Both the position numbers and the translations under genes were made by a program. This document shows positions 16,484 through 63,662 of a stretch of 64,000 bases of DNA, piece by piece (within the stretch, counting starts at the first letter, position 1; the number at the start of each line of letters is the position of its first letter). The notes beneath the pieces were generated by a model. It was not told where the DNA came from. It saw only the letters and a list, made by a program, of their open reading frames with translations, and made no database searches. The DNA comes from an uncultured Candidatus Saccharibacteria bacterium (GTDB taxonomy: Bacteria > Patescibacteriota > Doudnabacteria > UBA920 > O2-02-FULL-48-8): contig CAZSDS010000001.1 in the NCBI GenBank assembly GCA_964605735.1, positions 573,864 through 637,863 of the forward strand, written 5' to 3'.

Positions 16484-16512
16484 AAAAACCGCTGTTAGGC
16501 GGTTTTTTTCAA
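16484..16512. terminator. Bidirectional rho-independent terminator
   Basis: Hairpin aaaccgctgttaggcggttt flanked by an A-run and a T-run. It serves both the plus-strand sORF and the minus-strand LOG gene. Confidence 0.7.
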
Positions 16513-17166
16513 AATTTCTTTAACCTCTTCCACAGTGTCTGCAAACTGAACCAGTTTCAGGTCACGCTTCTGGTCTATGTAGTAACCGTGTTTTCGCGGC
16601 ACTGTGTTGAGCCATTTAAACAAACCCTCCCAGTACTTGCGGTCAACGCAGATGATCGGCACCTGGTCAATATAGTTAATCTGCATTAGCACAATGTATT
16701 CGAACAATTCATTAAGAGTACCGTATCCCCCAGGATAGAAAATTAAGGCATCGCTTTTCAAGGACAGGATGAAACGGCGGACAAACAAAAAATGGTAAGT
16801 GCTCTGGTCAGTATAAATTTTGCTGGTCACGCGCTCGTTATGTATCACAGCTTTGATGCCGATGGATGTCCCTTTGGCATCATAAGCTCCCAAATTTCCC
16901 GCATGCATGATCCCAGGACCGCCCCCTGTGACAATGGCATAACCTTCTTGAGCCAGTTCCTTGCCCAGACGGTAAGCGTGTTTGTAATGCTTGCTTGAAG
17001 GCTTTGACTTATGGGAACCCAAAAACGAAATGATTGGCTGGTGTATTTTGTTAAGAAGTTTCAATCCAACGTCTATTTCCTTTTTCACTCTCCCTGTAGT
17101 CCACTTGCTGTTAAGGTACTTGCTGTTTACTGTCTTCTTCTTCATTTTCCTATAAGTTCCTTTCAT
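16495..17166 (-). CDS. LOG family protein (TIGR00730 Rossmann-fold nucleotide-binding / cytokinin riboside 5'-monophosphate phosphoribohydrolase-like)
   Basis: 223 aa with the LOG-family motifs GGGPGIMHAGNLGAYDAKGTSIGI and PGGYGTLNELFE. The true start may be the second or third Met. Confidence 0.85.
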   Translation of the reverse strand: MKGTYRKMKKKTVNSKYLNSKWTTGRVKKEIDVGLKLLNKIHQPIISFLGSHKSKPSSKHYKHAYRLGKELAQEGYAIVTGGGPGIMHAGNLGAYDAKGTSIGIKAVIHNERVTSKIYTDQSTYHFLFVRRFILSLKSDALIFYPGGYGTLNELFEYIVLMQINYIDQVPIICVDRKYWEGLFKWLNTVPRKHGYYIDQKRDLKLVQFADTVEEVKEILKKTA

Positions 17167-18414
17167 TTAATCATTCTTTATAAAAATGCTGTTTCCAAAT
17201 AACCAGTAGGTAAAGGCTTTCCACGGGTTCATTATTGACAGGAAATATCGCAAATCAGCAAATTTCCTAATGATCCAGCCCGGAAAACCGGAAATGATGA
17301 CGTTCTTAGTATATAGGATAGCAAATTTTCCTGCTGCAGGGATGACATATCTTGTTGGGCCAGGAAAATACGGCTGAAGCTCCTTCTCCGAAGCCATGCG
17401 GAATACATTTTTGGCAACGTGACCGCCCTGCCTGATGGCCTCCTGTGCGGTCTGGGGAACCAGTTTTTTGGTCGCAGGGTCAGTATAACAAAGATTGTCC
17501 CCGGCAATGAATACCCTGGGGTATTTTTTCAGGTTCAAAAAATCAGTGGTTGGGGTTCGGTCTTTTTTGTCCCGTTCCAAGTCGTTGGAAGCCGGCAAAC
17601 GGCAGGACCTGACTCCTCCGGTCCAGACCAGAAGATCACACGGAACACGTTCTTTGTTGTTTAAGACCACATAATCCTTGCCTGCCTCTGTGATCAAAGT
17701 GGAAAATCTCATTTCAATCTTCCTGCTGGCAAGCCTTTCCTGCAAAATTGCCGCCACTCGTTCAGACAAACCCGGCAAAAGCGTAGGCGCACCCTCAACC
17801 AGCATGAGCTTGAAATTATCCATGTTCTTGCCGTGCGTTTCGCATTCGTGCCTGATAAGGTTATGCAACTCACCGGCAAACTCTGAGCCAGCAAACCCGC
17901 CTCCCCCAATAACCAACTGGCCACTGTCTTTCTTTGACATGATTTCTTCCACGCGGTTCCTGATCATGACAGCGTCCTCCAGGCTTTTTAAGGAGAATCC
18001 GTATTTTTCAAGGTTAGGGATGCCGTAGTAATCAGCTATGCTGCCCATGGCCACCACCAAATAATCATAGTGCAAAACGCGGCTGTCAGTAGTGACCAAC
18101 CCATTCTCCATATCGATATTTTCAATGTACGCTTTGTGGACTTTAACTTTTGAACGCTTGAACACAAGGTCAAAAGGGATGGTTACGGATCGTTTTATGT
18201 TTTTTGCTTCCACCATACCGCTCTCAGCAGTTGCAGCCTCATACAGGGCCGAATAATACGTCTGATAGTCCTTCCTGTCGATGACAATAACCTGATATTC
18301 CGGCTTATGCTTGAAATATTCTGCCAAATCCAGTGCGGCGCGGATGCCGGCGAAGCCACCTCCTAGCACTATGATATTTTTTTGTTCTGAAATGTTTGAT
18401 TTTGGTGTCGACAT
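17167..18414 (-). CDS. ndh: Type II NADH dehydrogenase / FAD-dependent pyridine nucleotide-disulfide oxidoreductase
   Basis: 415 aa. It has two dinucleotide-binding GxGxxG motifs (IVLGGGFAGI and IGGGGFAGSEFA) and an overall NDH-2 architecture. Confidence 0.8.
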   Translation of the reverse strand: MSTPKSNISEQKNIIVLGGGFAGIRAALDLAEYFKHKPEYQVIVIDRKDYQTYYSALYEAATAESGMVEAKNIKRSVTIPFDLVFKRSKVKVHKAYIENIDMENGLVTTDSRVLHYDYLVVAMGSIADYYGIPNLEKYGFSLKSLEDAVMIRNRVEEIMSKKDSGQLVIGGGGFAGSEFAGELHNLIRHECETHGKNMDNFKLMLVEGAPTLLPGLSERVAAILQERLASRKIEMRFSTLITEAGKDYVVLNNKERVPCDLLVWTGGVRSCRLPASNDLERDKKDRTPTTDFLNLKKYPRVFIAGDNLCYTDPATKKLVPQTAQEAIRQGGHVAKNVFRMASEKELQPYFPGPTRYVIPAAGKFAILYTKNVIISGFPGWIIRKFADLRYFLSIMNPWKAFTYWLFGNSIFIKND

Positions 18415-18430
18415 GAATAAAAAAGCGAAT

Positions 18431-18472
18431 AAAAAAGCACTTTGATTATATCACATTCCAAGTGCTTTTTTG
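18431..18472. terminator. Bidirectional terminator between the copper operon and ndh
   Basis: Hairpin gcactttgattatatcacattccaagtgc with A/T runs on both sides. Confidence 0.6.
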
Positions 18473-18512
18473 AGAATTTTCCGATAAATAAATTTTTGTG
18501 GCTGGTTTTTGT

Positions 18513-18779
18513 TTAGCCTTTAAGCAATTCTTCCACTTTATTTATTAATTTTGCCTTATCCAGGCCCCCTGTAGAAAACAACTCGTTGTTTATGATGATT
18601 CCGGGGGAGGCAAAAATCATGTATTTTTGCACCATTTCCTGACCTGCAGGATCCATGACTGAAACATACTCGACTTTAACTTGAGGGTATTTGGGTTTGA
18701 ATTCCTCTTCCAGGAATTTTTTGGCTTCAGCGCAATGGCTGCAACCAGGAGTTGAAAGTTCGGTTATTTTTACATCCAT
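18513..18779 (-). CDS. Thioredoxin-like (glutaredoxin-like) small protein
   Basis: 88 aa. It has a CSHC redox motif in a thioredoxin-fold context and is the last gene of the copper operon. Confidence 0.75.
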   Translation of the reverse strand: MDVKITELSTPGCSHCAEAKKFLEEEFKPKYPQVKVEYVSVMDPAGQEMVQKYMIFASPGIIINNELFSTGGLDKAKLINKVEELLKG

Positions 18780-18826
18780 ATAATTTACGTTAGCGCTTCC
18801 GGCTGTCCTACAAAGGACCGCATGCT

Positions 18827-19042
18827 CTAGGCGGCTGGCGATGAGCTGTAGCCCATATCTTTAATTGCATTATTGAAATCTTCTGGCTTCAATTTGGATT
18901 CGTCGTAAGTGACTTCGCCCAATTTGGAGTCTAAATCCACTGAGGCGGCGCTCACGCCGTCCAGATTCTGCCAGATCATTGTAATGCCAGTTGCGCAGGC
19001 ACCGCAATGCATGCCTGTGATGTTAAATTTTTGGTGTGTCAT
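18827..19042 (-). CDS. copZ: Copper chaperone CopZ (heavy-metal-associated domain)
   Basis: 71 aa with the HMA motif MHCGACA and a ferredoxin-like fold length. Confidence 0.9.
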   Translation of the reverse strand: MTHQKFNITGMHCGACATGITMIWQNLDGVSAASVDLDSKLGEVTYDESKLKPEDFNNAIKDMGYSSSPAA

Positions 19043-19331
19043 ATCTTCTTCCTGAATTTAATAGTTTTGAAATAATTTTTGAGATTATCCAAATAATCAA
19101 TAAGTCCACAATTATCACTACTGCGTATCCAAATGTGGTTGGTGTGCCGAAAATAATATCGGGTTGTGGAATAAACAAATTATTGATTCCTGCTGCCGTG
19201 AGCAGAACCAGAGGCATCATTGTAACCATAATGGCTGCAGATTCAGCCCAAACCATACCCATGGCACCTAATAACCACAAAAGCCCTAGAATCACTACCA
19301 AACTGACAAAAACTCTTTTTGCTGAAAACAT
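19023..19331 (-). CDS. Small hypothetical membrane protein (3 predicted TM helices)
   Basis: 102 aa and hydrophobic. It lies between copA and copZ and overlaps copZ by 20 nt. Confidence 0.5.
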   Translation of the reverse strand: MFSAKRVFVSLVVILGLLWLLGAMGMVWAESAAIMVTMMPLVLLTAAGINNLFIPQPDIIFGTPTTFGYAVVIIVDLLIIWIISKIISKLLNSGRRYDTPKI

Positions 19332-19332
19332 A

Positions 19333-21624
19333 TTAGTTACTCCCCTCTTTTTCCTGCATCTTTTCCATGGCAGGTTTGTACAATCTCAGCATCATAGCTG
19401 AAAGCACCACTGAAACGGACGAGAAAGCCATGGCAAATCCTGCAACTTCCGGACGCAAACTGCGCAATAATTGCGGCGCCCACTCAACAGCAAACAGAGC
19501 GCCGGCTGCCACTGGAATCGAAATGATGTTGTAGATAAATGCCCAGAACAAGTTTTGCTTAACTTTAGAGATAGTTTTACGAGCCAACTGAATGGCTGAA
19601 ACCACATCACGCAAATCGTCTTTGATCAAAACAAAGCTTCCGGTTTCAATGGCCACATCAGTGCCGGACCCAATGGCAATACCCACGTCAGCTTGAGCCA
19701 GCGCAGGGGAATCGTTGATTCCATCCCCTACCATAGCCACAACCTTGCCTTCAGACTGCAGCTGTTTAACAACCTCTGCTTTCTTTTCCGGCAAAACTTT
19801 CGCCATGACGCGGTCAATCCCCACTGTGCGAGCAATCGCTTCTGCGGTGTTTTGGTTGTCACCTGTGATCATGACCATCTCTATGCCCATTTTCTTAAGC
19901 TCAGCAATAGCCTCTTTTGCATACGGCTTCAAAGTGTCGGCCATGGCGACCAGGGCCTGTACCTTGCCGTCTACCGCTGCAAAAATAACTGTCTTAGCCT
20001 CACTGGCGAGCCTGCTCAATTGCGGAGCAAGACTGGCGTGTTCAACACCTGCCTTGTCCATCATAGCTTCGTTCCCAACCACAATATGCAGTTTCTTGAT
20101 GTCCCCTTCCGCACCCATACCAGCTGTTGCTTTGAAATTTTTCAGCTCCTCCACTTTAGCTCCCTTGCTTTGCGCGTATTTAACAATTGCCTGAGCCAGC
20201 GGGTGTTCTGAGCCTTTTTCCACTGCGGCAATTAAAGGCAGTAACTCGGCCTCGCTGTAATTTCCAGTCAGGACAATGTCAGTCACAGCGGGCTCACCCT
20301 TGGTCAGGGTTCCAGTCTTGTCAAAAGCAATGGCGTTCAAATGCTTTGCGCGTTCAATTGCTTCACCTCCTTTGGCCAAAATCCCATACTCAGCACTTTT
20401 CCCGATGCCAACGATCAAAGCCATAGGAGTGGCCAAACCCAAAGCACACGGACAGGAAATAACCAGCACAGCAATTCCTTTTATCAAGGCCTCGCGGAAC
20501 GGGAAATCGCCCACAAAATACCAGGCTCCGAACACAAGCACTGCCAGAACAATGATAAACGGCACAAAATATTCAGCAATTTTGTCGGCTAAGCCCTGGA
20601 TAGGGGCCTTGGTCGCCTGTGCATCCTCAACCATGCGCACAATCTGGTTAAGCAAAGTGTCCTTGCCGACTTTCTCAGCTTTGAATTTGAACAAACCGTA
20701 GGAGTTAACCGTGGCACCAATCACCTTGTCCCCTGCTTTCTTGTTCACCGGCATACTTTCGCCGGTAACGACTTTTTCGTCTATCGCAGTTTCTCCTTCA
20801 ATCATTGTTCCGTCCACCGGAACTTTTTCACCCGGCTTGACTATGACTGTGTCGCCAACCTTAACCTGATCAACAGGAACTTTCATTTCTGACCCATCTC
20901 GGACCACAGTCGCTTCTTTCGCTTCCAGTTTCAAAAGTTTTTTCACTGCATCAGAAGCTTTGGCGCGGGCGGTAATTTCCAAATATCTTCCTAGCAAAAT
21001 AAACGACATCAAAGCCGCGGATGATTCCCAATATGGGTGGTCGATATTAAAGAATAAAAATCCGATCATGGAATACAGGTATGCGGCGGTGGTACCCAAA
21101 ACAACCAGCACGTCCATATTCGCACTGCCTGCGCGCAAAGCAGACCAGGCATTGCGGTAAAACGGCCACCCTACTCCAAACTGCACCCACGTGGACATGA
21201 TCCAGTAAATGTAGTTCAAATCAATGCCGCCGATGGCATGCACGTGCTTCAAGTTGAAAATGTGCACGGCCATGTAGTAAACGATAATCGGCGTGGAAAT
21301 TGCAAATGCCAGCCAAACGCGGCGCTTGGCAGAAATCATTTCCTGTTTGCGATGCTTTTCCACTTCGCCTGAATGGTCTTTTTCCTCATCTGGACGGACA
21401 AGGTCATAACCTAATTTATGTAAAAACTCGTCCATCTGGACCAGGGTGATTTTGGCCGGATCAAAAGTCAGTTTTACGCGTTCTGCGCCGAAGCTGGCTT
21501 CCGCCTGCAAAATCCCCGGCTGTTTGGCCAACAACTTGTTAATCAAAAGCGCGCACGCAGCACAATGCATGCCGCGCACGCGCAGGACCAAAGATTCTGT
21601 TTTCGCCACTACTGCTTCTGGCAT
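19333..21624 (-). CDS. copA: Copper-translocating P1B-type ATPase
   Basis: 763 aa. It has an N-terminal HMA domain (MHCAACA), the CPC metal-translocation motif (CPCALGLATP) and the DKTGTLT phosphorylation site. Confidence 0.95.
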   Translation of the reverse strand: MPEAVVAKTESLVLRVRGMHCAACALLINKLLAKQPGILQAEASFGAERVKLTFDPAKITLVQMDEFLHKLGYDLVRPDEEKDHSGEVEKHRKQEMISAKRRVWLAFAISTPIIVYYMAVHIFNLKHVHAIGGIDLNYIYWIMSTWVQFGVGWPFYRNAWSALRAGSANMDVLVVLGTTAAYLYSMIGFLFFNIDHPYWESSAALMSFILLGRYLEITARAKASDAVKKLLKLEAKEATVVRDGSEMKVPVDQVKVGDTVIVKPGEKVPVDGTMIEGETAIDEKVVTGESMPVNKKAGDKVIGATVNSYGLFKFKAEKVGKDTLLNQIVRMVEDAQATKAPIQGLADKIAEYFVPFIIVLAVLVFGAWYFVGDFPFREALIKGIAVLVISCPCALGLATPMALIVGIGKSAEYGILAKGGEAIERAKHLNAIAFDKTGTLTKGEPAVTDIVLTGNYSEAELLPLIAAVEKGSEHPLAQAIVKYAQSKGAKVEELKNFKATAGMGAEGDIKKLHIVVGNEAMMDKAGVEHASLAPQLSRLASEAKTVIFAAVDGKVQALVAMADTLKPYAKEAIAELKKMGIEMVMITGDNQNTAEAIARTVGIDRVMAKVLPEKKAEVVKQLQSEGKVVAMVGDGINDSPALAQADVGIAIGSGTDVAIETGSFVLIKDDLRDVVSAIQLARKTISKVKQNLFWAFIYNIISIPVAAGALFAVEWAPQLLRSLRPEVAGFAMAFSSVSVVLSAMMLRLYKPAMEKMQEKEGSN

Positions 21625-22040
21625 TAGATTACCTCAAGCGTCCCGATCATATCGAAATGATCCCGGGTTTCGCCATTAACCTCGCCCTTGCCGCATGGAA
21701 CTGAACAATAAAAATTAAATTTACCTTTTCTGGTTGCCACCACGCTTCTTGTCACGGTTTTGTTCGCTGGCATTTTCTCGTTAACCCCGTAACCGTCAAT
21801 ACCAATACCGTGGTCGTAATCATCCTCGTTGATGAAAGTAAAATTTATTTTGTCTCCGGCGTTTACCTGGACGTTTGTCACATCCCAGCGCCATTCGTCC
21901 TTAACTGCCCTGATGGTTATGTTTACTTCTTTGCCAGTCGCCTCAACCACCTTATCACTTTGCCCTTTCATGTTTTTAAAGATAACTCCGCCTACCAGGA
22001 ACACCGCAACAACAATTCCGATAATAACGTACTTGTTCAT
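21624..22040 (-). CDS. Cupredoxin-like copper-binding protein (signal anchor)
   Basis: 138 aa with an N-terminal TM helix. C-terminal residues C..C..H..M are arranged as in cupredoxins (FYCSVPCGKGEVNGETRDHFDM). Confidence 0.55.
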   Translation of the reverse strand: MNKYVIIGIVVAVFLVGGVIFKNMKGQSDKVVEATGKEVNITIRAVKDEWRWDVTNVQVNAGDKINFTFINEDDYDHGIGIDGYGVNEKMPANKTVTRSVVATRKGKFNFYCSVPCGKGEVNGETRDHFDMIGTLEVI

Positions 22041-22042
22041 AT

Positions 22043-24613
22043 TTAAACCTTAATCCTTTCTTCGTTTAAGTATCTAAAGATAAATGGCATAACTGCCGCA
22101 ATCAACAAGATCGAGACCAGAGCCAGCAACCATTTAGGCAGGCCCTGGGACGGCAAAGGTTCTCCTACATTGACCCAGAATTCCGCCAGCCTGACCTCGC
22201 TTGGATTGTCTTGCGTGACGAATTCGGTGAAAATTTTGTAGCGGCCCGGTTCAGGGAAAGCAAAAGCAATTCGCATATCCTTTTCGTTGAAGCTTATTAT
22301 TTCCTCGCCGGGGGCAGTGCCGTGCATATGACCTGCACCTTCATCAGCCTGCGCCTTGGGAATCAAGGACCAACTCAGCGAAGATGGAGCTGAACCGTGC
22401 ATATGCGCCCCTCCCCCATGGCCGTCAGTTCCTATCATGCCGTAATTGGTATGCAAATGATGATAGTGCCTTACGTCAGGAGAAATAATGTTAATGTGCA
22501 TGTTCTCTTCCAGATATTTGCCAAGAGGGATATCGAACCCGCCGGCATCAGTGACGGCAAAACCAATGTTGTGTTCAGTGCCTGCATACAATTGTGTTGC
22601 GGCTTTCATCGTCACCACCAGGTTATCTTCCAATTCTTGGACTCTGGAAAAGTCAGGTTCATAGTTTGCCACAACTGCGCCGCCCTGAACCGTCAGGTCA
22701 GCCATTTTTTGCGTAACATGCGCGCCGTTATAAACTATTCCCGGCCAGATTGAATAGACTCCTGGCTGGTCAAACACATGATCAACCACAAATTTTCCGT
22801 TCACCACTTTCGGGTGGATGTGGAAGAATTCGTTTAAGTCTCCCTGGCGGGCACCAACCACGTGCATTGGTTCGCCATGTGAAATCTCCAGATTTGTCTG
22901 AGCCTGTCCGGTTTTGATATCGATTACCTCAAACGACAAAGTGGTAATAGTGTTGCCGCGAACCGTCCTGTCCGCGGTAGTCATTTTTATTTCCACCCCG
23001 GATTCTGCCGGGGTCATGGCGCCGTGGGCGTGGTCGTCAGGCGTGCCAGGAGCATGAGCATGATCGTCCATCATATCCATATGCCCCCCGTGCATTGGCG
23101 CCACCTGATACTTGTACCAATTTGGGATTGTTATAGCAAAGAGCAGGTAAAGGAAAAGCACGGCTGTTATGGTATATGCACCAAACCATTTGAAGGCACG
23201 AACTGCCTCCGGGTTATTGGCGTCAACATCCTTTTTCTTTCGGCGCCAATTCCAGATCATTGGAATGGCAATTAAAGTCACCATCAGCCAACTGCCGTAT
23301 TTAAGGTAAGGACCGGTTGGCATTTCATGAGTGTGGGCAATGCCGCCGAACTGGTTGGCATATTGAGTCATGAAAGAAGCCTCCTGGGTGATCTGTTCCA
23401 GCAATGAATGCAGGCCGGAGTAAACATACCAATCGTGGCCAAGCAAACCGAAGGTCAAAATAAACGCGCCTACGCCAACTACGCCCCAGGCAGTGGCTCG
23501 AGTCAGCGCTTCGCGGCGCTTCATCAACACCGTCAGGGCATCAACGCCAAGTACTGCCAAAATTGCCAACAGCAACAGCGGCGTTACACGGCCAACGGCA
23601 TGGATGAAGGTCAAAAACCATCCCTGGCTCATGCTCCCCACAGTGGCAATGTGCGCGAGCAAAACATAAAAAGCCGGGTTCGGGCAGCCAAGCCCCACAT
23701 TACCCAGCAACAAACCTAGTAAAAATCCCTTTGCTGCGTCTTTTCTGTCCTGAATAAATTTTGGAAACGCACCTGCGTAAGTTGGGACGCGCATTTTGAT
23801 CAGACCGAGTTCGCCAAATCCGAATACCACAGCAAACACACCTGCAATCAGATACATAGTGTCTTTGGCGCGGTCCAGACCAACCACTTCACCAAGCTTG
23901 GCAATCAAGGCGCCGTACATACTGAGAGTCAGCGTAACTCCAAGTGCAAAAGCAAAAGCAATAGTTAATCCTTTTTTAGGATCTTTGCCCATGGCCAGCG
24001 GAACAATCACGAATGCCAGCGGCAAAGTACAAGGCAGAACAATCATGGACAAACCCGTGGCATATGAAAATGCCAGCCAACCTGTCTGATCTTTGGTTGT
24101 GCTGGACAACCAGAACAACCCAATCAAAATTATCGAAAACAAAACAAAAGCAGAAACTACCAGTGCAATGCGGAAACGTTTCTGCTTGTCGCTTAAGGTC
24201 AGCTTAGGGCCAGCCGGAGTGCTTGTTGAGGATACAATCTCAGTTTTTGCCGGCTGGTTTTTAGGGGAAAATGTGCTGAAGAATACTGCCAGCGATCCGC
24301 CAAGGATGGCCAAGTCCCGAAAAGTCACTGCATCAATGCCATATAAGAGCAAAATCGCGACCATTTCCAGGGCTGAAATAAAAGCCGCTGGCCTCAAAAA
24401 GAATCCTGAAATGAATGCCAGCGCCAAAAGTATTTCCACCCCGCCCTGGATTTGGATAAACGTCAGGACGTCCACTGGCAACAGGTTTTTGACCCAGAAT
24501 GGGACGAAATTTGACCAGGACGCCGGACTCGTCATTAAATCAAAGCCGGAGAAAATATAAGTAAAAGCCAAACCAAAACGAAGAATTAGGTTCGATACTT
24601 TTGAATAATTCAT
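22043..24613 (-). CDS. Large multidomain membrane protein. Domains: an N-terminal DoxX-like TM domain, a DsbD/CcdA-type thiol-disulfide transporter core, and His/Met-rich periplasmic metal-binding segments with a C-terminal TM anchor.
   Basis: 856 aa. The N-terminus (FTYIFSGFDLM...) is DoxX-like. The LPCTLP motif sits in a multi-TM core typical of CcdA/DsbD. The soluble part carries His clusters (HGGHMDMMDDHAHAPGTPDDHAHGAM, HYHHLHTNYGMIGTDGHGGGAHMHG and GAGHMHGTAPG). Confidence 0.6.
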   Translation of the reverse strand: MNYSKVSNLILRFGLAFTYIFSGFDLMTSPASWSNFVPFWVKNLLPVDVLTFIQIQGGVEILLALAFISGFFLRPAAFISALEMVAILLLYGIDAVTFRDLAILGGSLAVFFSTFSPKNQPAKTEIVSSTSTPAGPKLTLSDKQKRFRIALVVSAFVLFSIILIGLFWLSSTTKDQTGWLAFSYATGLSMIVLPCTLPLAFVIVPLAMGKDPKKGLTIAFAFALGVTLTLSMYGALIAKLGEVVGLDRAKDTMYLIAGVFAVVFGFGELGLIKMRVPTYAGAFPKFIQDRKDAAKGFLLGLLLGNVGLGCPNPAFYVLLAHIATVGSMSQGWFLTFIHAVGRVTPLLLLAILAVLGVDALTVLMKRREALTRATAWGVVGVGAFILTFGLLGHDWYVYSGLHSLLEQITQEASFMTQYANQFGGIAHTHEMPTGPYLKYGSWLMVTLIAIPMIWNWRRKKKDVDANNPEAVRAFKWFGAYTITAVLFLYLLFAITIPNWYKYQVAPMHGGHMDMMDDHAHAPGTPDDHAHGAMTPAESGVEIKMTTADRTVRGNTITTLSFEVIDIKTGQAQTNLEISHGEPMHVVGARQGDLNEFFHIHPKVVNGKFVVDHVFDQPGVYSIWPGIVYNGAHVTQKMADLTVQGGAVVANYEPDFSRVQELEDNLVVTMKAATQLYAGTEHNIGFAVTDAGGFDIPLGKYLEENMHINIISPDVRHYHHLHTNYGMIGTDGHGGGAHMHGSAPSSLSWSLIPKAQADEGAGHMHGTAPGEEIISFNEKDMRIAFAFPEPGRYKIFTEFVTQDNPSEVRLAEFWVNVGEPLPSQGLPKWLLALVSILLIAAVMPFIFRYLNEERIKV

Positions 24614-57315: not shown

Positions 57316-57345
57316 TAAAAAATCACCTGTTCAGGTGATTTTTTG
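57316..57345. terminator. Bidirectional rho-independent terminator
   Basis: Hairpin atcacctgttcaggtgat flanked by A/T runs. Confidence 0.75.
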
Positions 57346-57355
57346 TGGCTGAAAT

Positions 57356-57832
57356 TTATTCAGTAACCCTAACTGAGCCGGTGCGGGTTGGATTTAGGTG
57401 GTCATGGAACCTCCAGTTGCCAACCCGGTCAAAAGTGAACGACCAGGATTCGCCAACCGCCACCCCTTGCTTTGGGTCAAAGGCAGGATAATCAGTGTGG
57501 CTTGGATGAGGAGCAGATGCAGGCCAGATATCTTTGGTTCCGTTGTTGATGAAAGTTACGGTGTCGCCTCTTTTAACTGTCAGGTCTTTTGGAGTATAAC
57601 CTGAATCAGTCATGCTGACCTGGTACTCCTGTGGCTCTTGTGGCTCGCCTGTATTTTGGTCAGGGTTTTCCCCTTCATTTGCAGAAGGAGTTGGAGTAGG
57701 GGTTGGATTTGTGGTCTCATTTTGCATTTCATTCCCATTGTCTGCAGGCGCAGATGCATCCTGGTTCATAAGCAAAACCGCACCCACGACCACAATAACC
57801 ACTACTATAACGCCCAATAAAGTTCTATTCAT
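57356..57832 (-). CDS. Cupredoxin-like domain protein with an N-terminal TM anchor and a Pro/Thr/Asn-rich linker
   Basis: 158 aa. The C-terminal domain (KRGDTVTFINNGTKDIWPASAPHPSH...WRFHDHLNP) resembles cupredoxin/EfeO-type copper sites. Confidence 0.5.
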   Translation of the reverse strand: MNRTLLGVIVVVIVVVGAVLLMNQDASAPADNGNEMQNETTNPTPTPTPSANEGENPDQNTGEPQEPQEYQVSMTDSGYTPKDLTVKRGDTVTFINNGTKDIWPASAPHPSHTDYPAFDPKQGVAVGESWSFTFDRVGNWRFHDHLNPTRTGSVRVTE

Positions 57833-57852
57833 AGAAGATACGTCCTTTCTAA

Positions 57853-58827
57853 TTATATTTTATGCGCGTCCACAACAGGTTTTGCGTGGACCTCACATAC
57901 TTCGCTGCCGTGCAAACCCAGATCTTTAAAGGCTGAAGTTGCAGCCATAGCGCCTGTGGCCGCGGCAGTTATGTCCTGTTTGAACGCCCCAAAGTGATTA
58001 GTAGTATCACCTGCGGCAAACACCCCGTCAATGTTCGTTTGCATGAAATTATCAACCTTAATGTACCCCCTTTCATCCAATTCCACGCCAATTGACTTCG
58101 CTAATTCAACATTTGGCACCGCTCCAATCTCAACAAACAGTCCGTCAATTTTTAATTCACCTGATTTGCCGCCGGTATTAAGCACAATCTTTTCCAGTCC
58201 TAAGCCGCTGGATTTTGAAACGATTTCCTCAACTTGGCTGTCGTAAATGACATCCACTTTATCTCCCAACTTTTTCATCATGTCGTAATTAATTGGCTCA
58301 GCATGCAGTTCTTTTTCCCTGGTAATGAGATAAACTTTTTTAGCGTACACACCAGCCAAGTTTGCCCCCTTAACGGAAGCATCTCCGCCACCGACAATCG
58401 CAATTGTCTTTCCGGTATATAACGGGCCGTCGCAGGTCACGCAGTAATGAACCCCCTTCCCCACTAAACTCTTTTCATTTGATAGGCCAAGTTTTCTTCT
58501 TTCTGTTCCCAGGGCGAAAATCAAAGTCTTGCCTTGATATTCATTTTCACCCACAAAAACCGAAATACAGTGTCCTTGTTTTACAATCCTGGATACCTCC
58601 CCCTCCAGGATTTCTGCGCCAGTGGTTTTGGCCTGGTCGCGCATCCGAGTCATCAGCTCATACCCGTCAATTTCAGGCAGTCCGGGGTAGTTGGAAATGA
58701 TCCAGGCTGTTGAGGTTTCGCCGCCGAACTCCTTGCCTATAACCAAGGTTTTCATTTTATACCGCCCCGCGTAAATGGCGGCTGACAAGCCGGAAGCACC
58801 TGTCCCTATGATTATCAAATCGTACAT
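57853..58827 (-). CDS. Thioredoxin-reductase-like FAD/NAD(P)-binding oxidoreductase (CVTC redox motif)
   Basis: 324 aa. It has the TrxB-like architecture with GxGxxG x2 and CVTCDG in place of the canonical CATCDG. Confidence 0.7.
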   Translation of the reverse strand: MYDLIIIGTGASGLSAAIYAGRYKMKTLVIGKEFGGETSTAWIISNYPGLPEIDGYELMTRMRDQAKTTGAEILEGEVSRIVKQGHCISVFVGENEYQGKTLIFALGTERRKLGLSNEKSLVGKGVHYCVTCDGPLYTGKTIAIVGGGDASVKGANLAGVYAKKVYLITREKELHAEPINYDMMKKLGDKVDVIYDSQVEEIVSKSSGLGLEKIVLNTGGKSGELKIDGLFVEIGAVPNVELAKSIGVELDERGYIKVDNFMQTNIDGVFAAGDTTNHFGAFKQDITAAATGAMAATSAFKDLGLHGSEVCEVHAKPVVDAHKI

Positions 58828-58873
58828 TTTTGTTTCAATTAAAGTTAGATATATTTTAGCAAAATTTTATTGT

Positions 58874-59560
58874 TTAGGTCAGGTTTTGGGTTGCTTCTTT
58901 AACCCACTCCACAAGGCTGGCCATAAACTCGGGATTGTTGTCGAAAATTTGCGTGCCGTGCCCGCCAGTTCTGAAAATCTGGATGGATTTTTTCTGGCTT
59001 GAGCAGGCATTGTACAAAGTTTCCGTCTGGGCGGCGTTCCCCTCCACTCTGTCATCATCCAAAGCCGAAACAAAATACACCGGCAAAACCTCAGGCAATG
59101 AAGTGGTAAGCCGGCCAGCCTCAATCCCGTAATAATTGAGCCCTGGAGATAGGAATATGGCAAACGCCGCAGGGTTAGCAGCCGCATATTGCATGGATAA
59201 ATTCGCCCCTATGCTCGCCCCCACAAACCCAATCGCCATGTCAGGATTCTGCTTGAGCAAGTAGTCAACTGACGCCTTCAGGTCAAAAATTGATTTTTGG
59301 TGCTGTTCCGCGGAAAAGTTTTGGTAATCCCCGCCTGAAGATTCGCCATGTCCCCGCAGGTCTATTGCCAGCGTGTGAAATCCGGCCCGTGACAACTGCT
59401 CGGCAAATTTCGCGTAAGATTCCTTTGTTGCCGGCATCATATGCACCAAAACCACCCCAAAAGGCAAAGAGCCGGGTATGTAAGTCCCGGCTATTTCGAA
59501 ATCATCAACCGTATTCAGTTTCACATCAAGACTTTTCATAACCGTACCCCAATCTGCCAC
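58874..59560 (-). CDS. Alpha/beta hydrolase (dienelactone hydrolase / prolyl oligopeptidase-like)
   Basis: 228 aa. It has a HG oxyanion motif and the nucleophile elbow GASIGA. Confidence 0.7.
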   Translation of the reverse strand: MADWGTVMKSLDVKLNTVDDFEIAGTYIPGSLPFGVVLVHMMPATKESYAKFAEQLSRAGFHTLAIDLRGHGESSGGDYQNFSAEQHQKSIFDLKASVDYLLKQNPDMAIGFVGASIGANLSMQYAAANPAAFAIFLSPGLNYYGIEAGRLTTSLPEVLPVYFVSALDDDRVEGNAAQTETLYNACSSQKKSIQIFRTGGHGTQIFDNNPEFMASLVEWVKEATQNLT

Positions 59561-59568
59561 TGTTAAGT

Positions 59569-60078
59569 TTAAGGCACTTTTTCAGGACCCTGGTCATAAT
59601 GAGCTTCAATAAACCTCAAAATGGTAGTCTCATCAAAAGCATCCAATTTCTGCAAACGGGTCCACGCAGCCAATGCAATGTTCGAGTCATTAGCTTCCCT
59701 TGGCGTGACAATAACTTTGCGGTATCTCTGGGCAAAATCTTTCAGCCTGGAAATATCTTCCGCGCTCACAACTGATGGTTTGTAAGAGATCCAGATGCCG
59801 CCATGCTCAAGATTGTGCACGTATCTTTCATCAGCCTCCGGGTTGTCATGGATCCCCCACGGCGCGGCCTCCGGCCAATGCCAGCCTGACGTCGGCGGGT
59901 TGGAATTGTATGGAGGGTGTTCTTTGCTCCCATCAGCAATATGCTCTGCCCCCTGGTTTTCCAACAGCTCGCCTGGCTTGGTGGAAGAATCAGGTGCGCT
60001 GTTAGAGGAAGTGAACAAGTAATACCCCAAACCAACAACTGCAATCACAACCCCGAAGATACCTATGAATGCTTTCAT
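59569..60078 (-). CDS. DUF3105 domain protein (signal-anchored)
   Basis: 169 aa with an N-terminal TM helix. The HNLEHGGIWISY core is typical of DUF3105. Confidence 0.6.
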   Translation of the reverse strand: MKAFIGIFGVVIAVVGLGYYLFTSSNSAPDSSTKPGELLENQGAEHIADGSKEHPPYNSNPPTSGWHWPEAAPWGIHDNPEADERYVHNLEHGGIWISYKPSVVSAEDISRLKDFAQRYRKVIVTPREANDSNIALAAWTRLQKLDAFDETTILRFIEAHYDQGPEKVP

Positions 60079-60114
60079 GTATTTATTTTTAAGAATAAAT
60101 TATTTTTGTGTCAA

Positions 60115-61053
60115 TTAGCCATGGTCCAATCCAAGATATCTTTCAGCATCAATAGCGGCCATGCACCCCATTCCGGCTGCAGTGACTGCCTGACGGTAAT
60201 GGTGGTCATGTACGTCCCCTGCCACAAACACACCGGGAACGGAAGTTGCCATTGGGAAATGGGAGTCCTTGCCGCTCTTTAAAACATAACCTTTCTCATC
60301 CGTCTCTACCTGACCCTTGAACAAAGCAGTGTTTGGGTTATGGCCAATGGCAATAAAAGCGCCATCAATTTTCATTTCCCTGGCTTCGCCGGTATTCACG
60401 TCCTTAAGCTTTACCCCTGTCAGCTTTTCATCGCCAAAAAAGTCCTCAACAACAGTGTTGTACATGACCGAAATTTTTGGGTTATTCAGCGCGCGCTCCT
60501 GCATGATCTTAGAGGCACGGAAAGCATCCCTTCTGTGGACGATTGTAACTTTCGAAGCAAACTTGGTCAGGTACGAAGCTTCTTCCATAGCCGAATCCCC
60601 GCCGCCAACTACAATTATTTCTTTGTCTTTGAAGAAAAAACCATCGCAAGTCGCGCATGACGAAACACCCTTGCCACGGAATTTTTCCTCGGAAGGAAGA
60701 CCAAGCCAAATTGATGAGGCGCCAGTGGCAATGATTACGGAATCAGCTGTGTAAGTTTCTTTTCCGATTTCCAAAGTGAACGGCTTTTTAGAAAAATCAA
60801 CTTTTGTGACATCATCATAAACCAACTCAGCGCCGAATCTTTCCGCCTGCTGAATCATTCCCTGCATCAGCTCAGGACCCATGATGCCTTTTGGGAACCC
60901 AGGGAAATTTTCAACTTCCGTGGTAAGCATCAGCTGGCCACCAAAAGTCAACCCAGCGACTATTAAAGGTTTTAAATCTGCACGGGCAGTATAAATACCA
61001 GCAGTTAAACCTGCTGGCCCTGACCCGATAATTATTACTTTATGATGCTTCAT
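60115..61053 (-). CDS. trxB: Thioredoxin-disulfide reductase
   Basis: 312 aa with GSGPAG, the CATCDG redox-active disulfide and a second GGGDSA NADPH motif. Confidence 0.9.
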   Translation of the reverse strand: MKHHKVIIIGSGPAGLTAGIYTARADLKPLIVAGLTFGGQLMLTTEVENFPGFPKGIMGPELMQGMIQQAERFGAELVYDDVTKVDFSKKPFTLEIGKETYTADSVIIATGASSIWLGLPSEEKFRGKGVSSCATCDGFFFKDKEIIVVGGGDSAMEEASYLTKFASKVTIVHRRDAFRASKIMQERALNNPKISVMYNTVVEDFFGDEKLTGVKLKDVNTGEAREMKIDGAFIAIGHNPNTALFKGQVETDEKGYVLKSGKDSHFPMATSVPGVFVAGDVHDHHYRQAVTAAGMGCMAAIDAERYLGLDHG

Positions 61054-61063
61054 ATTACACCTG

Positions 61064-62017
61064 CTATATTTTCTTAATTTGCGTCCAGTCTGAGGTCATT
61101 CCGGCTCCGCCCCGCTGTTTCATTATATGGTCGTGGGCTGCAAGCGCTGCGGCTGCACCCTCACCAGCGGAAATTACTGCCTGCTTGTATGGCCGGTTAG
61201 TCACATCTCCTGCCGCAAACACCCCCGGCACAGACGTTTCCTGGTTGGCGTCTATAACCACCTGCCCCAACTCATCCAATTCGCAGAAACCTTCCAGCCA
61301 TTTTGAGTTTACCATATATCCGATTTCCACGAACAACCCTTCCGTCTCATACTTTACTTGCTGACCAGTCAATAAATTGTGGCATTTAAGATGCTGGAGG
61401 TATTTCTCTCCGCAGACCTCCTGAATCTGGGTATGCGGGACCAGTTCGATTTTTTTATGCTTCAAAACCTTTTTGACCAGCGCCGGATGCCCAATCAGTT
61501 TATCAGTTTTTGACAATGTGTAAACCTTTTTGGCGAATTTGGCGCAAATCAGCGCCGCCTCCAGTCCTATATCGCCATAGCCGGCAACAATAACGGTTCG
61601 GCCCTTGAAAAGAGGGGCATCGCAAGTGGCGCAGTAAGAGACTCCCCTGCCCTTAAGCTCATGCTCACCCGGCACATTCAGATCCATGGGACTTTTTCCA
61701 AAAGCCAGAATAACAGTCTTGGATTTGTATTGTTTGCCGTAAGCCTGAACCACAAAACCATCAGGCGCGGTTTTTAATTTACTCGCTTCCGCTATCTCAG
61801 TTTTTACACCCCAACCTTCAGCCTGTTTCTTTATTTTGCTGACAAGCTCATAGCCGCCAGTCAAAGCTATCCCTGGGAAATTCTCTATGACGTCAGTGCT
61901 GTTGGCCTGCCCGCCAATGTCTTTGGCCAAAACCGAAACCTCCAGACCCCGTCTGGCTGCAAACAAAGCGCTGCTGTAGGCCGCAATGCCTCCACCAATT
62001 ATTAACACATCGGTCAT
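61064..62017 (-). CDS. Thioredoxin-reductase paralogue (CATC motif present, divergent)
   Basis: 317 aa with a YCATCDAP motif. It has the TrxB-like fold but divergent N/C-terminal regions. Confidence 0.7.
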   Translation of the reverse strand: MTDVLIIGGGIAAYSSALFAARRGLEVSVLAKDIGGQANSTDVIENFPGIALTGGYELVSKIKKQAEGWGVKTEIAEASKLKTAPDGFVVQAYGKQYKSKTVILAFGKSPMDLNVPGEHELKGRGVSYCATCDAPLFKGRTVIVAGYGDIGLEAALICAKFAKKVYTLSKTDKLIGHPALVKKVLKHKKIELVPHTQIQEVCGEKYLQHLKCHNLLTGQQVKYETEGLFVEIGYMVNSKWLEGFCELDELGQVVIDANQETSVPGVFAAGDVTNRPYKQAVISAGEGAAAALAAHDHIMKQRGGAGMTSDWTQIKKI

Positions 62018-62093: not shown

Positions 62094-62951
62094 TTACTTT
62101 TCGGCTAATATAACCACATTCTCCAATAGCTTAGCGACTGTAATGGGGCCAACTCCGCCTGGCACAGGCGTAATCAAACTTGCTTTTTTTGCCACCCTTT
62201 CAAAATCTACGTCACCCTGCAAAGCCCCATCCACGGAACTGGTTCCCGCATCAATAACGGTTGCGCCTTTCTTTACCATGTCTGCCTTGATCAATCCAGG
62301 CTGACCAGTGCCGCTGATCAAAATATCTGCTTTTTTTGTATGGTCTGAAAGTTTCTTTGTACCGAGTCCGCACACTGTCATGGTCACAGGGTGATTGAGC
62401 ATTACAGCAGCAACCGCCTTCCCAACCAACTCTCCCTGCCCAACCACCACCACATGCGTCCCTTCCAATTCAATGTCAGACAAAATTTCCATCACAGCTC
62501 CGGCTGTTGGAGGAATAATCTTCATATGCCCCCGCGCTACCCTTCCTATTGCCGCAGAAGACAAACAGTCCGCATCTTTGTCAGGATCAATGGCATCCAG
62601 AATTTCCTGAGTATCAATTTGCTTAGGCAGAGGCAGTTGGACCATAACCGCGTCATTGCGCAGCTGTAAGCGCACAAGCTCTTCATTCAGCTGTTCCTGG
62701 TCAACATTAGCCGGAAACCGGATTAAGGAAAAATCAATGCCAACGTATTCCGCAGCTTTGGCTTTTTTCTCAACATACTTTTTTGAAGCCGGATTATCCC
62801 CGACCATAACCACTGCCAAAGTCGGCTGGCGGCGCAATTTGGAAACGCGAGCCTTCACAGAGTCAAGGATTTTTTGGGCAATCAATTTTCCTTCTATTTC
62901 TGCCATGATTTTGGGATTAAAATGCTTCTCTATTTTAGCATTTTCAGACAT
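62094..62951 (-). CDS. folD: Bifunctional methylenetetrahydrofolate dehydrogenase/cyclohydrolase
   Basis: About 285 aa from ATG 62951. It has the FolD motifs (VGDNPASKKYV, HVVVVGQGELVGKAV and PVPGGVGPITVA). The track ORF's N-terminal extension is spurious. Confidence 0.92.
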   Translation of the reverse strand: MSENAKIEKHFNPKIMAEIEGKLIAQKILDSVKARVSKLRRQPTLAVVMVGDNPASKKYVEKKAKAAEYVGIDFSLIRFPANVDQEQLNEELVRLQLRNDAVMVQLPLPKQIDTQEILDAIDPDKDADCLSSAAIGRVARGHMKIIPPTAGAVMEILSDIELEGTHVVVVGQGELVGKAVAAVMLNHPVTMTVCGLGTKKLSDHTKKADILISGTGQPGLIKADMVKKGATVIDAGTSSVDGALQGDVDFERVAKKASLITPVPGGVGPITVAKLLENVVILAEK

Positions 62952-63113
62952 AAAAAAACAGTAGCGCAAAACTACTGATAATCGACAAGATCGACAAAAT
63001 TGAACGATTCTATCCTTAGTTGTAGCCGGGCATGTCACGAACGGCCCGGCAAACCAGTCAATGCTATAATACCCTTGTGCCAGCTGTAACAAAATAATGA
63101 TTTTATCGATACA

Positions 63114-63662
63114 ATGTTAGACGAAACAGACGTTCAAAAGCTGGTCTCAGAAGCTGCCAAAGGCAACAGTGATTCATTCGGCAAGCTTTACGATCTCTAC
63201 TCCGCCCGTATCTTCAACTTCATTTTCTCCCGCGTCAGAAACAAGCAAACCGCAGAAGACATCCTCCACACCGTATTCATGAAGGCCTGGAACAATCTCC
63301 CCAAGTACCGCCCGACCAAGTCCGCAAAATTCTCAACCTGGCTGTTCCAGATCGCAAACTTCACGGTGATTGATTACTGGAGGACACAAAAGGAGACTGT
63401 TGAAATTGATAAGCTGGAAAACCTCGCGGCCTTCGCCAAAGAACCCAAGCTTTACGAAGACTACAGTTTTTTATGGAAGGCGCTGGAGGAGCTTCCGGAA
63501 GACTACCGAACAGTCCTCCGCCTGCGGTTCGTGGATGATCTGACGGTTTCTGAGACTGCTTTTGCCATGCAAAAAAGCGAAGTCGGAATCAGAGTGCTTC
63601 AGCACCGCGCTTTGAAAGCGCTCCGCAATTTTTTAATTAAGAACGGTTACGAAAATGTTTAA
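63114..63662 (+). CDS. ECF-subfamily RNA polymerase sigma-70 factor
   Basis: 182 aa with a sigma-70 region 2 (FNFIFSRVRNKQTAEDILHTVFMKAW) and a region 4 HTH. Confidence 0.9.
   Translation: MLDETDVQKLVSEAAKGNSDSFGKLYDLYSARIFNFIFSRVRNKQTAEDILHTVFMKAWNNLPKYRPTKSAKFSTWLFQIANFTVIDYWRTQKETVEIDKLENLAAFAKEPKLYEDYSFLWKALEELPEDYRTVLRLRFVDDLTVSETAFAMQKSEVGIRVLQHRALKALRNFLIKNGYENV

Follow-up and report, generated by a model that had tools for sequence, protein, structure and literature searches.

Locus organization

The window analysed here is a stretch of 64,000 nucleotides of contig CAZSDS010000001.1 (GenBank assembly GCA_964605735.1, positions 573,864 to 637,863 of the forward strand), from an uncultured Candidatus Saccharibacteria bacterium that GTDB places in the Doudnabacteria of the Patescibacteriota. 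At positions 57,356 to 62,017 of the window lies a cluster of six genes, three of which encode flavoenzymes of the thioredoxin reductase (TrxR) family, and it is these three enzymes and the operon that carries them that are considered below. All six genes are intact minus-strand open reading frames (ORFs) at the coordinates where the first-pass annotation of this DNA had placed them, and its description of six consecutive genes on one strand, with the motifs CVTC, CATC and CATC in the three TrxR-like products, is borne out by the ORFs and by Pfam and NCBIfam matches. We label the TrxR-like genes T2 (57853-58827, CVTC), T5 (60115-61053, CATC) and T6 (61064-62017, CATC).

Read in the direction of transcription, the cluster begins with T6, a TrxR-family flavoenzyme of 317 amino acids (aa) assigned by Pfam and NCBIfam profiles and by its motifs, followed by T5, the 312-aa canonical NADPH-dependent thioredoxin reductase (NTR) TrxB, assigned by TIGR01292 and motifs. 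The third gene encodes a 169-aa DUF3105 protein (59569-60078; Pfam PF11303) with an N-terminal membrane anchor, and the fourth a 228-aa alpha/beta hydrolase (58874-59560; Pfam Hydrolase_4 and Abhydrolase_1) with a GASIG nucleophile elbow and no anchor. T2, a 324-aa TrxR-like flavoenzyme of a type belonging to the candidate phyla radiation (CPR) and assigned in the same manner as T6, precedes the last gene of the unit, which encodes a membrane-anchored, cysteine-less protein of 158 aa with a cupredoxin fold (57356-57832), identified through Pfam, a fold model and Foldseek. The three TrxR-like proteins match Pyr_redox_2 with E-values of 1e-40 to 5e-54. From the cupredoxin gene to T6 the intergenic gaps are 20, 46, 8, 36 and 10 nt.

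The minus-strand folD gene (62094-62951), encoding a bifunctional methylene-tetrahydrofolate dehydrogenase/cyclohydrolase with matches to Pfam THF_DHG_CYH and THF_DHG_CYH_C, is part of the same unit and lies 76 nt upstream of T6. The ORF listed for it extends to a TTG start at 63092, the Pfam matches begin only at residue 66 of that ORF, and folD homologues are 278-280 aa long; the gene likely starts at the ATG at 62951, 47 codons downstream of the TTG, the listed ORF being over-extended. A sigma-70-family gene (63114-63662) is divergent from folD, as the same sigma gene also is in other Doudnabacteria, and the 160-nt region between the two probably carries both promoters. At the other end, in the interval that separates the cupredoxin gene from the convergent efp, folding predicts a terminator-like hairpin (57317-57344) with a 12-bp stem and a stability of -15.3 kcal/mol (z = -5.5; none of 200 shuffles was as stable). 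A scan for consensus promoters and terminators gave counts not above those of shuffled sequence and overlooked this hairpin. Together, the gene spacing and the hairpin suggest that the genes from folD to the cupredoxin form a single transcript.

Three divergent thioredoxin reductase paralogues

The two-Rossmann-domain TrxR fold is common to all three enzymes, as are a GxGxxG motif for FAD and a CxxC-Asp active site; each is about 315 aa long, and their pairwise identities are 33-38%. The FAD and CxxC motifs read GSGPAG and CATCD in T5, GTGASG and CVTCD in T2, and GGGIAA and CATCD in T6. Scores against the TrxB equivalog model TIGR01292 are 419.9 bits for T5, 287.0 for T2 and 275.9 for T6, so that only T5 passes the cut-off of 343.45 bits; the earlier identification of one canonical trxB among the three holds for this gene alone. 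The arginine motif HRRxxxR is present in T5 as HRRDAFR and missing from the other two, which have ITREKELHAEP (T2) and LSKTDKLIGHP (T6) at its place. The second glycine-rich loop is GGGDSA in T5, GGGDAS in T2 and GYGDIG in T6. Published work sorts NTR from non-NTR TrxB proteins by the motifs GxGxxA and HRRxxxR (PMC10880999), and under this motif rule T2 and T6 class as non-NTRs. Of the NADPH-binding residues, a point on which the first-pass annotation had wished to compare the paralogues, the 2'-phosphate motif HRRxxxR is confined to T5; T2 and T6 keep a glycine-rich second loop, have lost HRRxxxR and carry conserved C-terminal extensions of their own, about 15 residues long. Thioredoxin contact has been ascribed to a G(R/K)G motif and to an FF that follows the CxxC (PMC9025218). 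G(K/R)G is found in all three proteins and FF in T5 alone, T2 having PL(Y) and T6 PL(F) in the manner of AhpF and of SsTrxB3, the TrxB3 of Sulfolobus solfataricus.

A neighbour-joining (NJ) tree computed from 66 sequences over 302 columns, with 100 bootstraps, which is distance-based and built without references for clostridial FFTR (flavin thioredoxin reductase dependent on ferredoxin), diflavin-linked disulfide oxidoreductase (DDOR) or ferredoxin-NADP reductase (FNR), recovers the T2 family and the T6 family as monophyletic with bootstrap values of 100 each, and T5 together with Escherichia coli TrxB (sequence taken from NC_000913.3) with 99. The phylogenetic separation of the paralogues, proposed earlier as the way to examine them, is clear in this tree, where T6 also stands apart from E. 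coli AhpF and from the Gloeobacter FFTR (GvFFTR). Over many genomes each family is kept at 55-90% identity, with invariant motifs of its own.

The location of three genes of one fold within 4.2 kb might raise the suspicion of recent tandem duplicates, or of decaying copies with no separate function. The low identity between paralogues, the intact frames, the invariant motifs particular to each family and the bootstrap values of 99-100 leave this explanation with next to no probability, and recent duplication or pseudogene formation, which had been named as an outcome that would undo the first assessment, was rejected because the paralogues are so dissimilar and each family so conserved. By sequence, T2, T5 and T6 are old paralogues belonging to three separate clades.

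T5 is the ordinary member of the set. Its motifs (GGGDSA, HRRDAFR and GKG...CATCDGFF), its score of 376 bits to the Mycobacterium smegmatis TrxR 5uth, its 52% identity with E. coli TrxB and its place in the tree mark it as the housekeeping NADPH:thioredoxin reductase. Set beside the bacterial NTRs (E. coli 1TDE and M. smegmatis 5UTH; TIGR01292), T5 shows no difference of motif and exceeds the cut-off, whereas T2 and T6 differ in having no HRRxxxR, scores below the cut-off, PL(F/Y) in place of FF, and C-terminal extensions. In some Doudnabacteria (L082, 7959-8888; L084, 7959-8885) the trxB orthologue adjoining T6 has LNRSDKLRAS for HRRDxFRAS, a partly degenerate NADPH motif in an enzyme that is canonical in other respects.

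A conserved operon in Doudnabacteria

Look-ups and a metagenome scan with a T6 alignment yielded about 25 T6-family loci. A T5-type trxB follows T6 directly in all 25 checkable loci, often after only 1-13 nt, and wherever a locus of this family includes the upstream flank, folD precedes T6. The usual order is a divergent sigma factor, then folD, T6, trxB, optionally DUF3105, optionally glutamate dehydrogenase (GDH), and the cupredoxin gene, facing a convergent efp; DUF3105 occurs in 14 and GDH in 16 of the roughly 25 loci. In the window and in L002, L085 and L093 the hydrolase and T2 occupy the GDH slot (for comparison, among L082-L112 GDH lies at 9490-10728 in L084, for example), and in L092 the hydrolase occupies it alone. 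No T6-family locus other than L085, L092 and L093 has the hydrolase there, L002 having come from the T2 scan. GDH also adjoins a TrxR with a tryptophan tail in L088. The locus is a variant of a conserved operon of Doudnabacteria type within the CPR, folD-T6-trxB-DUF3105-[GDH or hydrolase + T2]-cupredoxin, in which the alpha/beta hydrolase is a lineage-specific insert.

Two collection scans together gave about 105 related loci, among which all three paralogues occur in one locus only in L002, L085 and L093 besides the window. The impression that three TrxRs so close together are unusual was correct, and their presence within about 4 kb is a lineage-specific elaboration of a conserved operon with two TrxRs.

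T6 and its tryptophan tail

T6 ends in the tail GLTSDWTQIK, which follows the family pattern G-(L/M)-(T/S)-S-D-W-T-(Q/E)-I-(K/R). S309, D310 and W311 are invariant, W311 being present in 21 of 21 aligned T6 homologues, and the tail motif is at least 90% conserved in about 120 homologues. At least 120 matches to the family are listed, at 56-100% identity and under Doudnabacteria names. The stretch that replaces HRRxxxR, L-S-K-T-D-K, is itself conserved (L168 and K170 invariant; S169, T171, D172 and K173 at least 90% conserved), and the site has therefore been remodelled and has not decayed.

A comparable tail is known from the Gloeobacter FFTR/DTR, in which a conserved tail tryptophan lies stacked against the flavin belonging to the other subunit, makes the semiquinone more stable and is needed for ferredoxin to bind (PMC8154056). 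The tail of GvFFTR (5j60, ...KAIKPDW; sequence recovered by a hybrid query) aligns with T6-family ...GAGMTSDW, although a PDB search run on the T6 tail by itself left the tryptophan unaligned. The likeness to the cyanobacterial enzymes extends to T6 being a non-NTR that keeps its CxxC and has a short tail with an invariant Asp-Trp aligned to the ...PDW of Gloeobacter, and loosely to the region replacing HRR, TPKD..LDGH in Gloeobacter and SKTDK.LIGH in T6. T6 differs in keeping the GxGxxG loop (GYGDIG) where GvFFTR has GLNPEA, in having PLF after the CxxC where the Gloeobacter enzyme has (A)F(Y), in being grouped elsewhere in the tree with HRRxxxR present in its closest tryptophan-tail relatives, and in having no ferredoxin gene in the window. 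T6 scores 133 bits against 5j60, compared with 180-195 for NTRs and AhpF. Orthology of T6 with GvFFTR was considered and rejected, since the tail agrees but the tree and the scores do not. From its tail and its remodelled site, T6 would be an enzyme with a tryptophan-capped flavin that takes electrons from a reductant other than canonically bound NADPH.

An exhaustive homologue search covering 1.84 billion representatives showed that the T6 family is narrow, with two to three clusters at 50% identity, and lies within a broad, loosely defined set of TrxR-fold proteins with a '...DW' tail. This set is mixed: some members have HRRxxxR, some lack it, and others, in which the CxxC has been lost, look like FNRs. 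The tryptophan tail accordingly predates T6's loss of the NADPH motif, and the tryptophan-tail group appears to be functionally mixed. Several relatives have no CxxC (P0261, P0309, P0326, P0348, P0351, P0366 and P0388), and some of these (for example P0326, P0348 and P0351) keep HRRxxxR, a pattern that resembles TrxR-like FNRs. One tryptophan-tail relative without HRRxxxR lies 3 nt after a thioredoxin gene. In the metagenomic loci L119-L137, tail-less TrxR-fold genes with 35-39% identity to T6 adjoin a glutaredoxin-like (Grx-like) gene whose products score 84-96 bits against the CPR Grx-like protein that is described with T2 below; such Grx-like/TrxR gene pairs are therefore widespread beyond the T2 family.

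The best phmmer matches of T6 in the PDB are AhpF structures (1fl2, 1hyu and 4o5q, 193-195 bits), and this ranking suggested that T6 might be the core of an AhpF-type peroxiredoxin reductase that has lost its N-terminal domain and serves peroxide detoxification. The score of T6 against the AhpF model TIGR03140 (264.7) lies near its TrxR score of 275.9, and T6 shares with AhpF both the CxxCDxPLF motif, in place of FF, and a GxGxxG second loop. The 264.7 bits are nonetheless far below the TIGR03140 cut-off of 502.9, and T6 aligns only to AhpF residues 213-518, having no N-terminal double thioredoxin-fold domain. Its neighbourhood is no more encouraging, as an AhpC/peroxiredoxin gene occurs in none of the roughly 25 T6 loci, and E. 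coli AhpF groups in the NJ tree with tail-less representatives of NADH type, on a branch separate from T6. The glutamate associated with NADH is absent, T6 having Ser where AhpF has Glu. On domain content, neighbourhood and tree the AhpF assignment was rejected, and we regard it as very improbable.

The constant order of T6 and trxB could also mean that the two proteins act together, as a heterodimer or an electron relay, with T5 supplying electrons to T6 or the T6 tryptophan capping the flavin of T5. Their adjacency in 25 of 25 loci, often with gaps of 1-13 nt, would fit such a unit, as would the stacking of the GvFFTR tryptophan on the other subunit's flavin. No heterodimer of this kind is known among low-molecular-mass (low-Mr) TrxRs, however; T6 keeps every catalytic motif of a self-sufficient enzyme, and adjacency has a further explanation in co-regulated parallel systems such as the NTR and FFTR of Clostridia. 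A joint T6-T5 enzyme seems to us distinctly unlikely. By its sequence and context T6 represents a new lineage of non-NTRs with a tryptophan tail, tied to trxB.

T2, an enzyme found across the candidate phyla radiation

T2 is characterised by the motifs HYCVTCDGP and GGGDAS, by Cys87, and by a C-terminal tail, H306-G-x3-C311-x2-H314 (HGxxxCxxH). A scan of one genome per species over 185,579 species found 328 relatives, and the best 80 of these 328 come almost entirely from metagenome-assembled genomes of Patescibacteria, at 50-86% identity; the few labelled otherwise are taken to be mis-binned. The sequence H127-Y-C-x-T-C-D-x-P is invariant in the family, and C87, H306, C311 and H314 are invariant in the sampled subgroup that bears the tail. 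A second, tail-less subgroup has CWTC and GGGDSS. Across 80 loci Cys87 and the tail CxxH occur together in 53 and are both missing in 21, with Cys87 alone in six and the tail alone in none (Fisher p = 3e-14, not corrected for phylogeny). The simplest reading of this covariation is that Cys87 and the tail form one extra site, which could be a metal site of two cysteines and two histidines or a disulfide.

The AlphaFold model of T2 has the TrxR fold (pLDDT 87), and Foldseek gives TM values of 0.86-0.92 to the Thermosipho africanus TrxR 7jyp and to SsTrxB3. These enzymes, from Thermotogae and from S. solfataricus (3F8P), are the best structural and sequence matches of T2, and SsTrxB3 shares with it the PLF motif and a two-residue insertion before (F/R)(K/R)Q. 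SsTrxB3 keeps HRRDTFK, whereas T2 has (T/V)R(E/G)KE at that place in addition to Cys87 and the HGxxxCxxH tail.

The genes surrounding T2 were clustered over 77 loci. The commonest neighbour, in 28 of 77, encodes a 78-aa CxxC protein of glutaredoxin fold (commonly CVYC), usually directly upstream of T2 with gaps of -3 to 47 nt. Others are a TlpA/Redoxin-like anchored protein (20/77), a DsbA-like protein (16/77), DUF3179 (14/77), GDH (12/77, often adjoining), CcdA/DsbD_TM (11/77), DoxX (10/77) and DUF3105 (8-10/77). In loci L002-L081, DUF3179 (14 loci), DoxX (10) and a 121-aa membrane protein (10) co-occur with the tail-bearing subtype only, and DsbA-like genes are commoner beside the tail-less one.

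TrxRs with glutaredoxin-like or NrdH-type partners are known in the NrdH/TrxB system of E. coli and in the TrxR/Grx-like system of Thermotoga maritima. In other CPR genomes T2-family genes lie directly downstream of the 78-aa glutaredoxin-fold gene, whereas in the window no Grx-like gene is adjacent to T2. The genes of CcdA/DsbD - TlpA/ResA - DsbA relays likewise recur beside the family, and the window has a DoxX-DsbD_TM fusion at 22043-24613; the six-gene cluster, by contrast, contains no gene of such a relay, and its anchored proteins have no redox cysteines. Judged by gene context across the CPR, T2 would be the reductase of a Grx/NrdH-like redoxin, probably feeding a thiol-disulfide relay in the cell envelope.

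Invariant cysteines and histidines in the tail, together with Cys87, also bring to mind MerA, which has C-terminal cysteines, and T2 might by this analogy be a metal-ion reductase whose tail passes an ion such as Cu(II) or Hg(II) to the CVTC pair. T2 does have the gene of a His-rich cupredoxin as its neighbour, and the window includes, at another place, a cluster for copper export. Its dominant neighbours in the CPR are, however, Grx-like, TlpA, DsbA and CcdA genes and not metal transporters; the core motifs persist in tail-less members, some of which have retained the same neighbours, and the MerA score is 74.6 bits against a cut-off of 454. A MerA-like role is in our view improbable. Searches of the literature on thioredoxin reductases in Patescibacteria and the CPR turned up no paper on enzymes of the T2 and T6 types, and the T2 family is apparently an undescribed, CPR-wide subfamily of non-NTRs with an extra, covarying Cys/His element.

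Anchored proteins of probable metal type and a second redox cluster

The product of the last gene in the operon has an N-terminal hydrophobic helix, a Pro/Thr-rich linker and a cupredoxin sandwich modelled with pLDDT mostly above 95. Its Pfam scores fall just short of the gathering thresholds (25.6 against 27 for Cupredoxin_1, PF13473; 17.7 against 21.2 for PF00127), and Foldseek matches it to plastocyanin and amicyanin (E about 1e-7 to 1e-8, TM to target 0.70-0.82) and to the cysteine-less Cupredoxin_1 protein 4hcf of Bacillus anthracis. The protein contains no cysteine, and H109, H112, H143 and H145 are invariant within the motifs WPASxPHPxH and (F/Y)HDH. Type-1 blue copper proteins such as plastocyanin and azurin have a Cys-His-Met ligand set, where this protein offers four histidines (HPxH, HDH), so that, judged by the defining ligands, it is not a type-1 blue copper protein; the cysteine-less Cupredoxin_1 of B. 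anthracis (4HCF/4HCG, copper- or zinc-bound) has the same beta-sandwich fold. Of the anchored cupredoxin-like protein first proposed, the anchor and the fold stand, with four invariant histidines and no cysteine.

The cupredoxin gene is the last of the operon in most Doudnabacteria loci. In L084 (10750-11508) and L106 (9884-10651) the operon-terminal cupredoxins are about 250 aa long, and that of L084 has an extra N-terminal domain containing ...SHIHTGTCE.... In one CPR genome (L010, 3911-4732) a TlpA-like domain (WAAWCPFC) is fused to a cysteine-less, four-histidine cupredoxin, encoded by a gene that follows one of the T2 family about 2 kb further downstream, and this fusion is the sole direct link between the cupredoxin and thiol chemistry.

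DUF3105 is a firm assignment (101.2 bits against a gathering threshold of 25). Among 26 homologues from loci L002-L112, H46, H67 and H88-x-x-E91-H92 are at least 95% conserved and no cysteine is. The H-x-x-E-H element is inverted-zincin-like and suggests an anchored metalloprotein; literature on DUF3105 is essentially absent, and nothing relevant was found. With neither a Cys ligand in the cupredoxin nor a conserved Cys in DUF3105, both look metal-binding and not thiol-active, and in all probability bind metal on the extracytoplasmic side instead of acting as thiol oxidoreductases. Their tie to the reductases consists of conserved co-location and the single TlpA-cupredoxin fusion. The expanded extracytoplasmic thiol system envisaged by the first-pass annotation finds support in T2, whose CPR neighbours are glutaredoxin-like, TlpA-like, DsbA-like and CcdA/DsbD proteins, and the cupredoxin domain is fused to a TlpA domain in one genome; the anchored proteins of the window look to be of metal type.

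A second redox and metal cluster occupies 16495-24613 of the window, on the minus strand, and includes a LOG-family protein. It encodes a 415-aa Pyr_redox_2 flavoprotein with weak similarity to two families, 'N-terminal to SelD' and CoA-disulfide-reductase, and an MJ0307-like thioredoxin of 88 aa (CSHC, 18513-18779). Further products are an HMA protein resembling CopZ, a membrane protein of 102 aa and the P-type ATPase CopA. Also present are a cupredoxin of 138 aa, whose C-x3-C...H..M loop is CuA/NosZ-like, and an 856-aa fusion of DoxX and DsbD_TM with a long His-rich C-terminal part. A connection between these copper and CSHC genes and the T2/T5/T6 locus had been suggested; with about 35 kb between them, the tie is thematic and nothing beyond that.

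Electron entry and redoxin partners

We consider it rather probable that the locus represents a conserved CPR operon carrying three diverged TrxR-fold enzymes that differ in how electrons enter and in which redoxin is served. Disulfide reductase activity is most likely present in all three, since the FAD motif and the CxxC-Asp site are kept, and in each of them electrons would pass from the flavin to the CxxC and on to a small redoxin. T5 is the housekeeping enzyme for transfer from NADPH to thioredoxin. T6, with a putatively tryptophan-capped flavin, could draw on ferredoxin or flavodoxin, or on a pyridine nucleotide whose binding is non-canonical. T2 may serve a glutaredoxin/NrdH-like redoxin and, downstream of it, extracytoplasmic thiol proteins of the CcdA/DsbD, TlpA and DsbA types. 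The features that would point T2 and T6 away from pyridine nucleotides are the missing phosphate-binding arginines, the lack of an acidic residue of NADH type and, for T6, the FFTR-like tail.

Several observations weigh against this proposal. T2 and T6 retain glycine-rich dinucleotide loops (GGGDAS and GYGDIG), and T2 retains an arginine (invariant R170) equivalent to E. coli R176, so that their sequences are still compatible with NADH as a ligand, or with NADPH bound weakly. Dehydrogenases that produce NAD(P)H recur nearby, folD always and GDH in 16 T6 and 12 T2 loci, which fits the use of pyridine nucleotides. Close tryptophan-tail relatives of T6 still have HRRxxxR, and the tail alone therefore does not imply dependence on ferredoxin; GvFFTR, moreover, joins neither T6 nor the tryptophan-tail group in the NJ tree. 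No ferredoxin motif, flavodoxin or canonical WCGPC thioredoxin was found in the 64-kb window. With regard to T2, the association of Cys87 with the tail carries the phylogenetic caveat given above, and the tail is modelled at a pLDDT of 45-69, which leaves the Cys87-tail contact without structural support. Co-transcription, finally, has gene spacing and one hairpin as its sole basis. Searches with phmmer found no homologue of the CPR Grx-like, TlpA, DsbA or CcdA neighbours in the window, whose only candidate redox partners are the MJ0307-like CSHC redoxin and the DoxX-DsbD fusion about 35 kb away.

Many of these points would be accommodated if T2 and T6 were ordinary pyridine-nucleotide TrxRs of shifted specificity, using NADH or a differently bound NADPH and each serving its own redoxin, in an operon that couples the NAD(P)H producers FolD and GDH to NAD(P)H-consuming reductases. 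The conserved folD and GDH neighbours, the retained GxGxx[G/S] loops, the invariant R170 of T2 at the position of E. coli R176 and the existence of tryptophan-tail relatives with intact HRRxxxR agree with this, and the nearest solved relatives of T2, SsTrxB3 with NADP and the T. africanus TrxR, are NAD(P)H enzymes. Set against it are the loss of the 2'-phosphate triad from both proteins and the lack, at the end of beta-2, of the acidic residue of an NADH site (AhpF LLEF), where T6 has Ser and T2 Thr or Val, together with the published motif rule that makes both non-NTRs (PMC10880999). We hold shifted pyridine-nucleotide specificity to be a realistic possibility, though not the likely outcome.

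A bolder version would make T2 an undescribed CPR-wide class in which Cys87, on the FAD domain, and the His306/Cys311/His314 tail form a fourth functional element that mediates electron entry or exit in compensation for the lost NADPH site, and folD-T6-trxB an obligate functional pairing of a tryptophan-capped non-NTR with an NTR. The extra element of T2 would then be a 2Cys/2His metal centre or a third redox pair, comparable to the C-terminal centre of high-Mr TrxR or of MerA. This we put forward as speculative and on the whole unlikely.

Clostridia with several TrxBs (Clostridium pasteurianum and C. acetobutylicum, 6GNA-6GND; C. difficile TrxB1-4) likewise combine NTR and non-NTR paralogues in one genome, their non-NTRs being defined, as here, by missing NAD(P)H motifs. 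The clostridial FFTRs are of about 288 aa and tail-less, whereas T2 and T6 have tails, and 6gna, 6gnc and 6gnd are among the weakest TrxR matches of both (101-129 bits). In contrast to Clostridia, the paralogues here share one operon, in a genome with a main contig of about 0.8 Mb. DDOR has no NADPH motif, no G(R/K)G or FF and a second flavin; T2 and T6 keep G(K/R)G and the glycine-rich loop and lack FF. The locus is a moderately unusual variant of known thiol-redox systems with multiple TrxBs.

Implications

CPR bacteria, or Patescibacteria, account for a sizeable part of bacterial diversity, have a minimal metabolism and possess few known reductant routes. To our knowledge, TrxRs that do not use NADPH, whether dependent on ferredoxin, F420 or another donor, have been characterised only in Clostridia, cyanobacteria and methanogens. 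The locus offers a compact test set in which one canonical and two non-canonical paralogues occur in the same cell. Should T2 and T6 prove to be NADH-preferring TrxRs, the finding would shrink to a refinement of annotation. If the T2 family and T6 do draw electrons from a source other than NADPH, or bear an extra site, models of redox homeostasis and of envelope disulfide chemistry in the CPR would change, and new mechanistic types would be added to a well-studied enzyme family.

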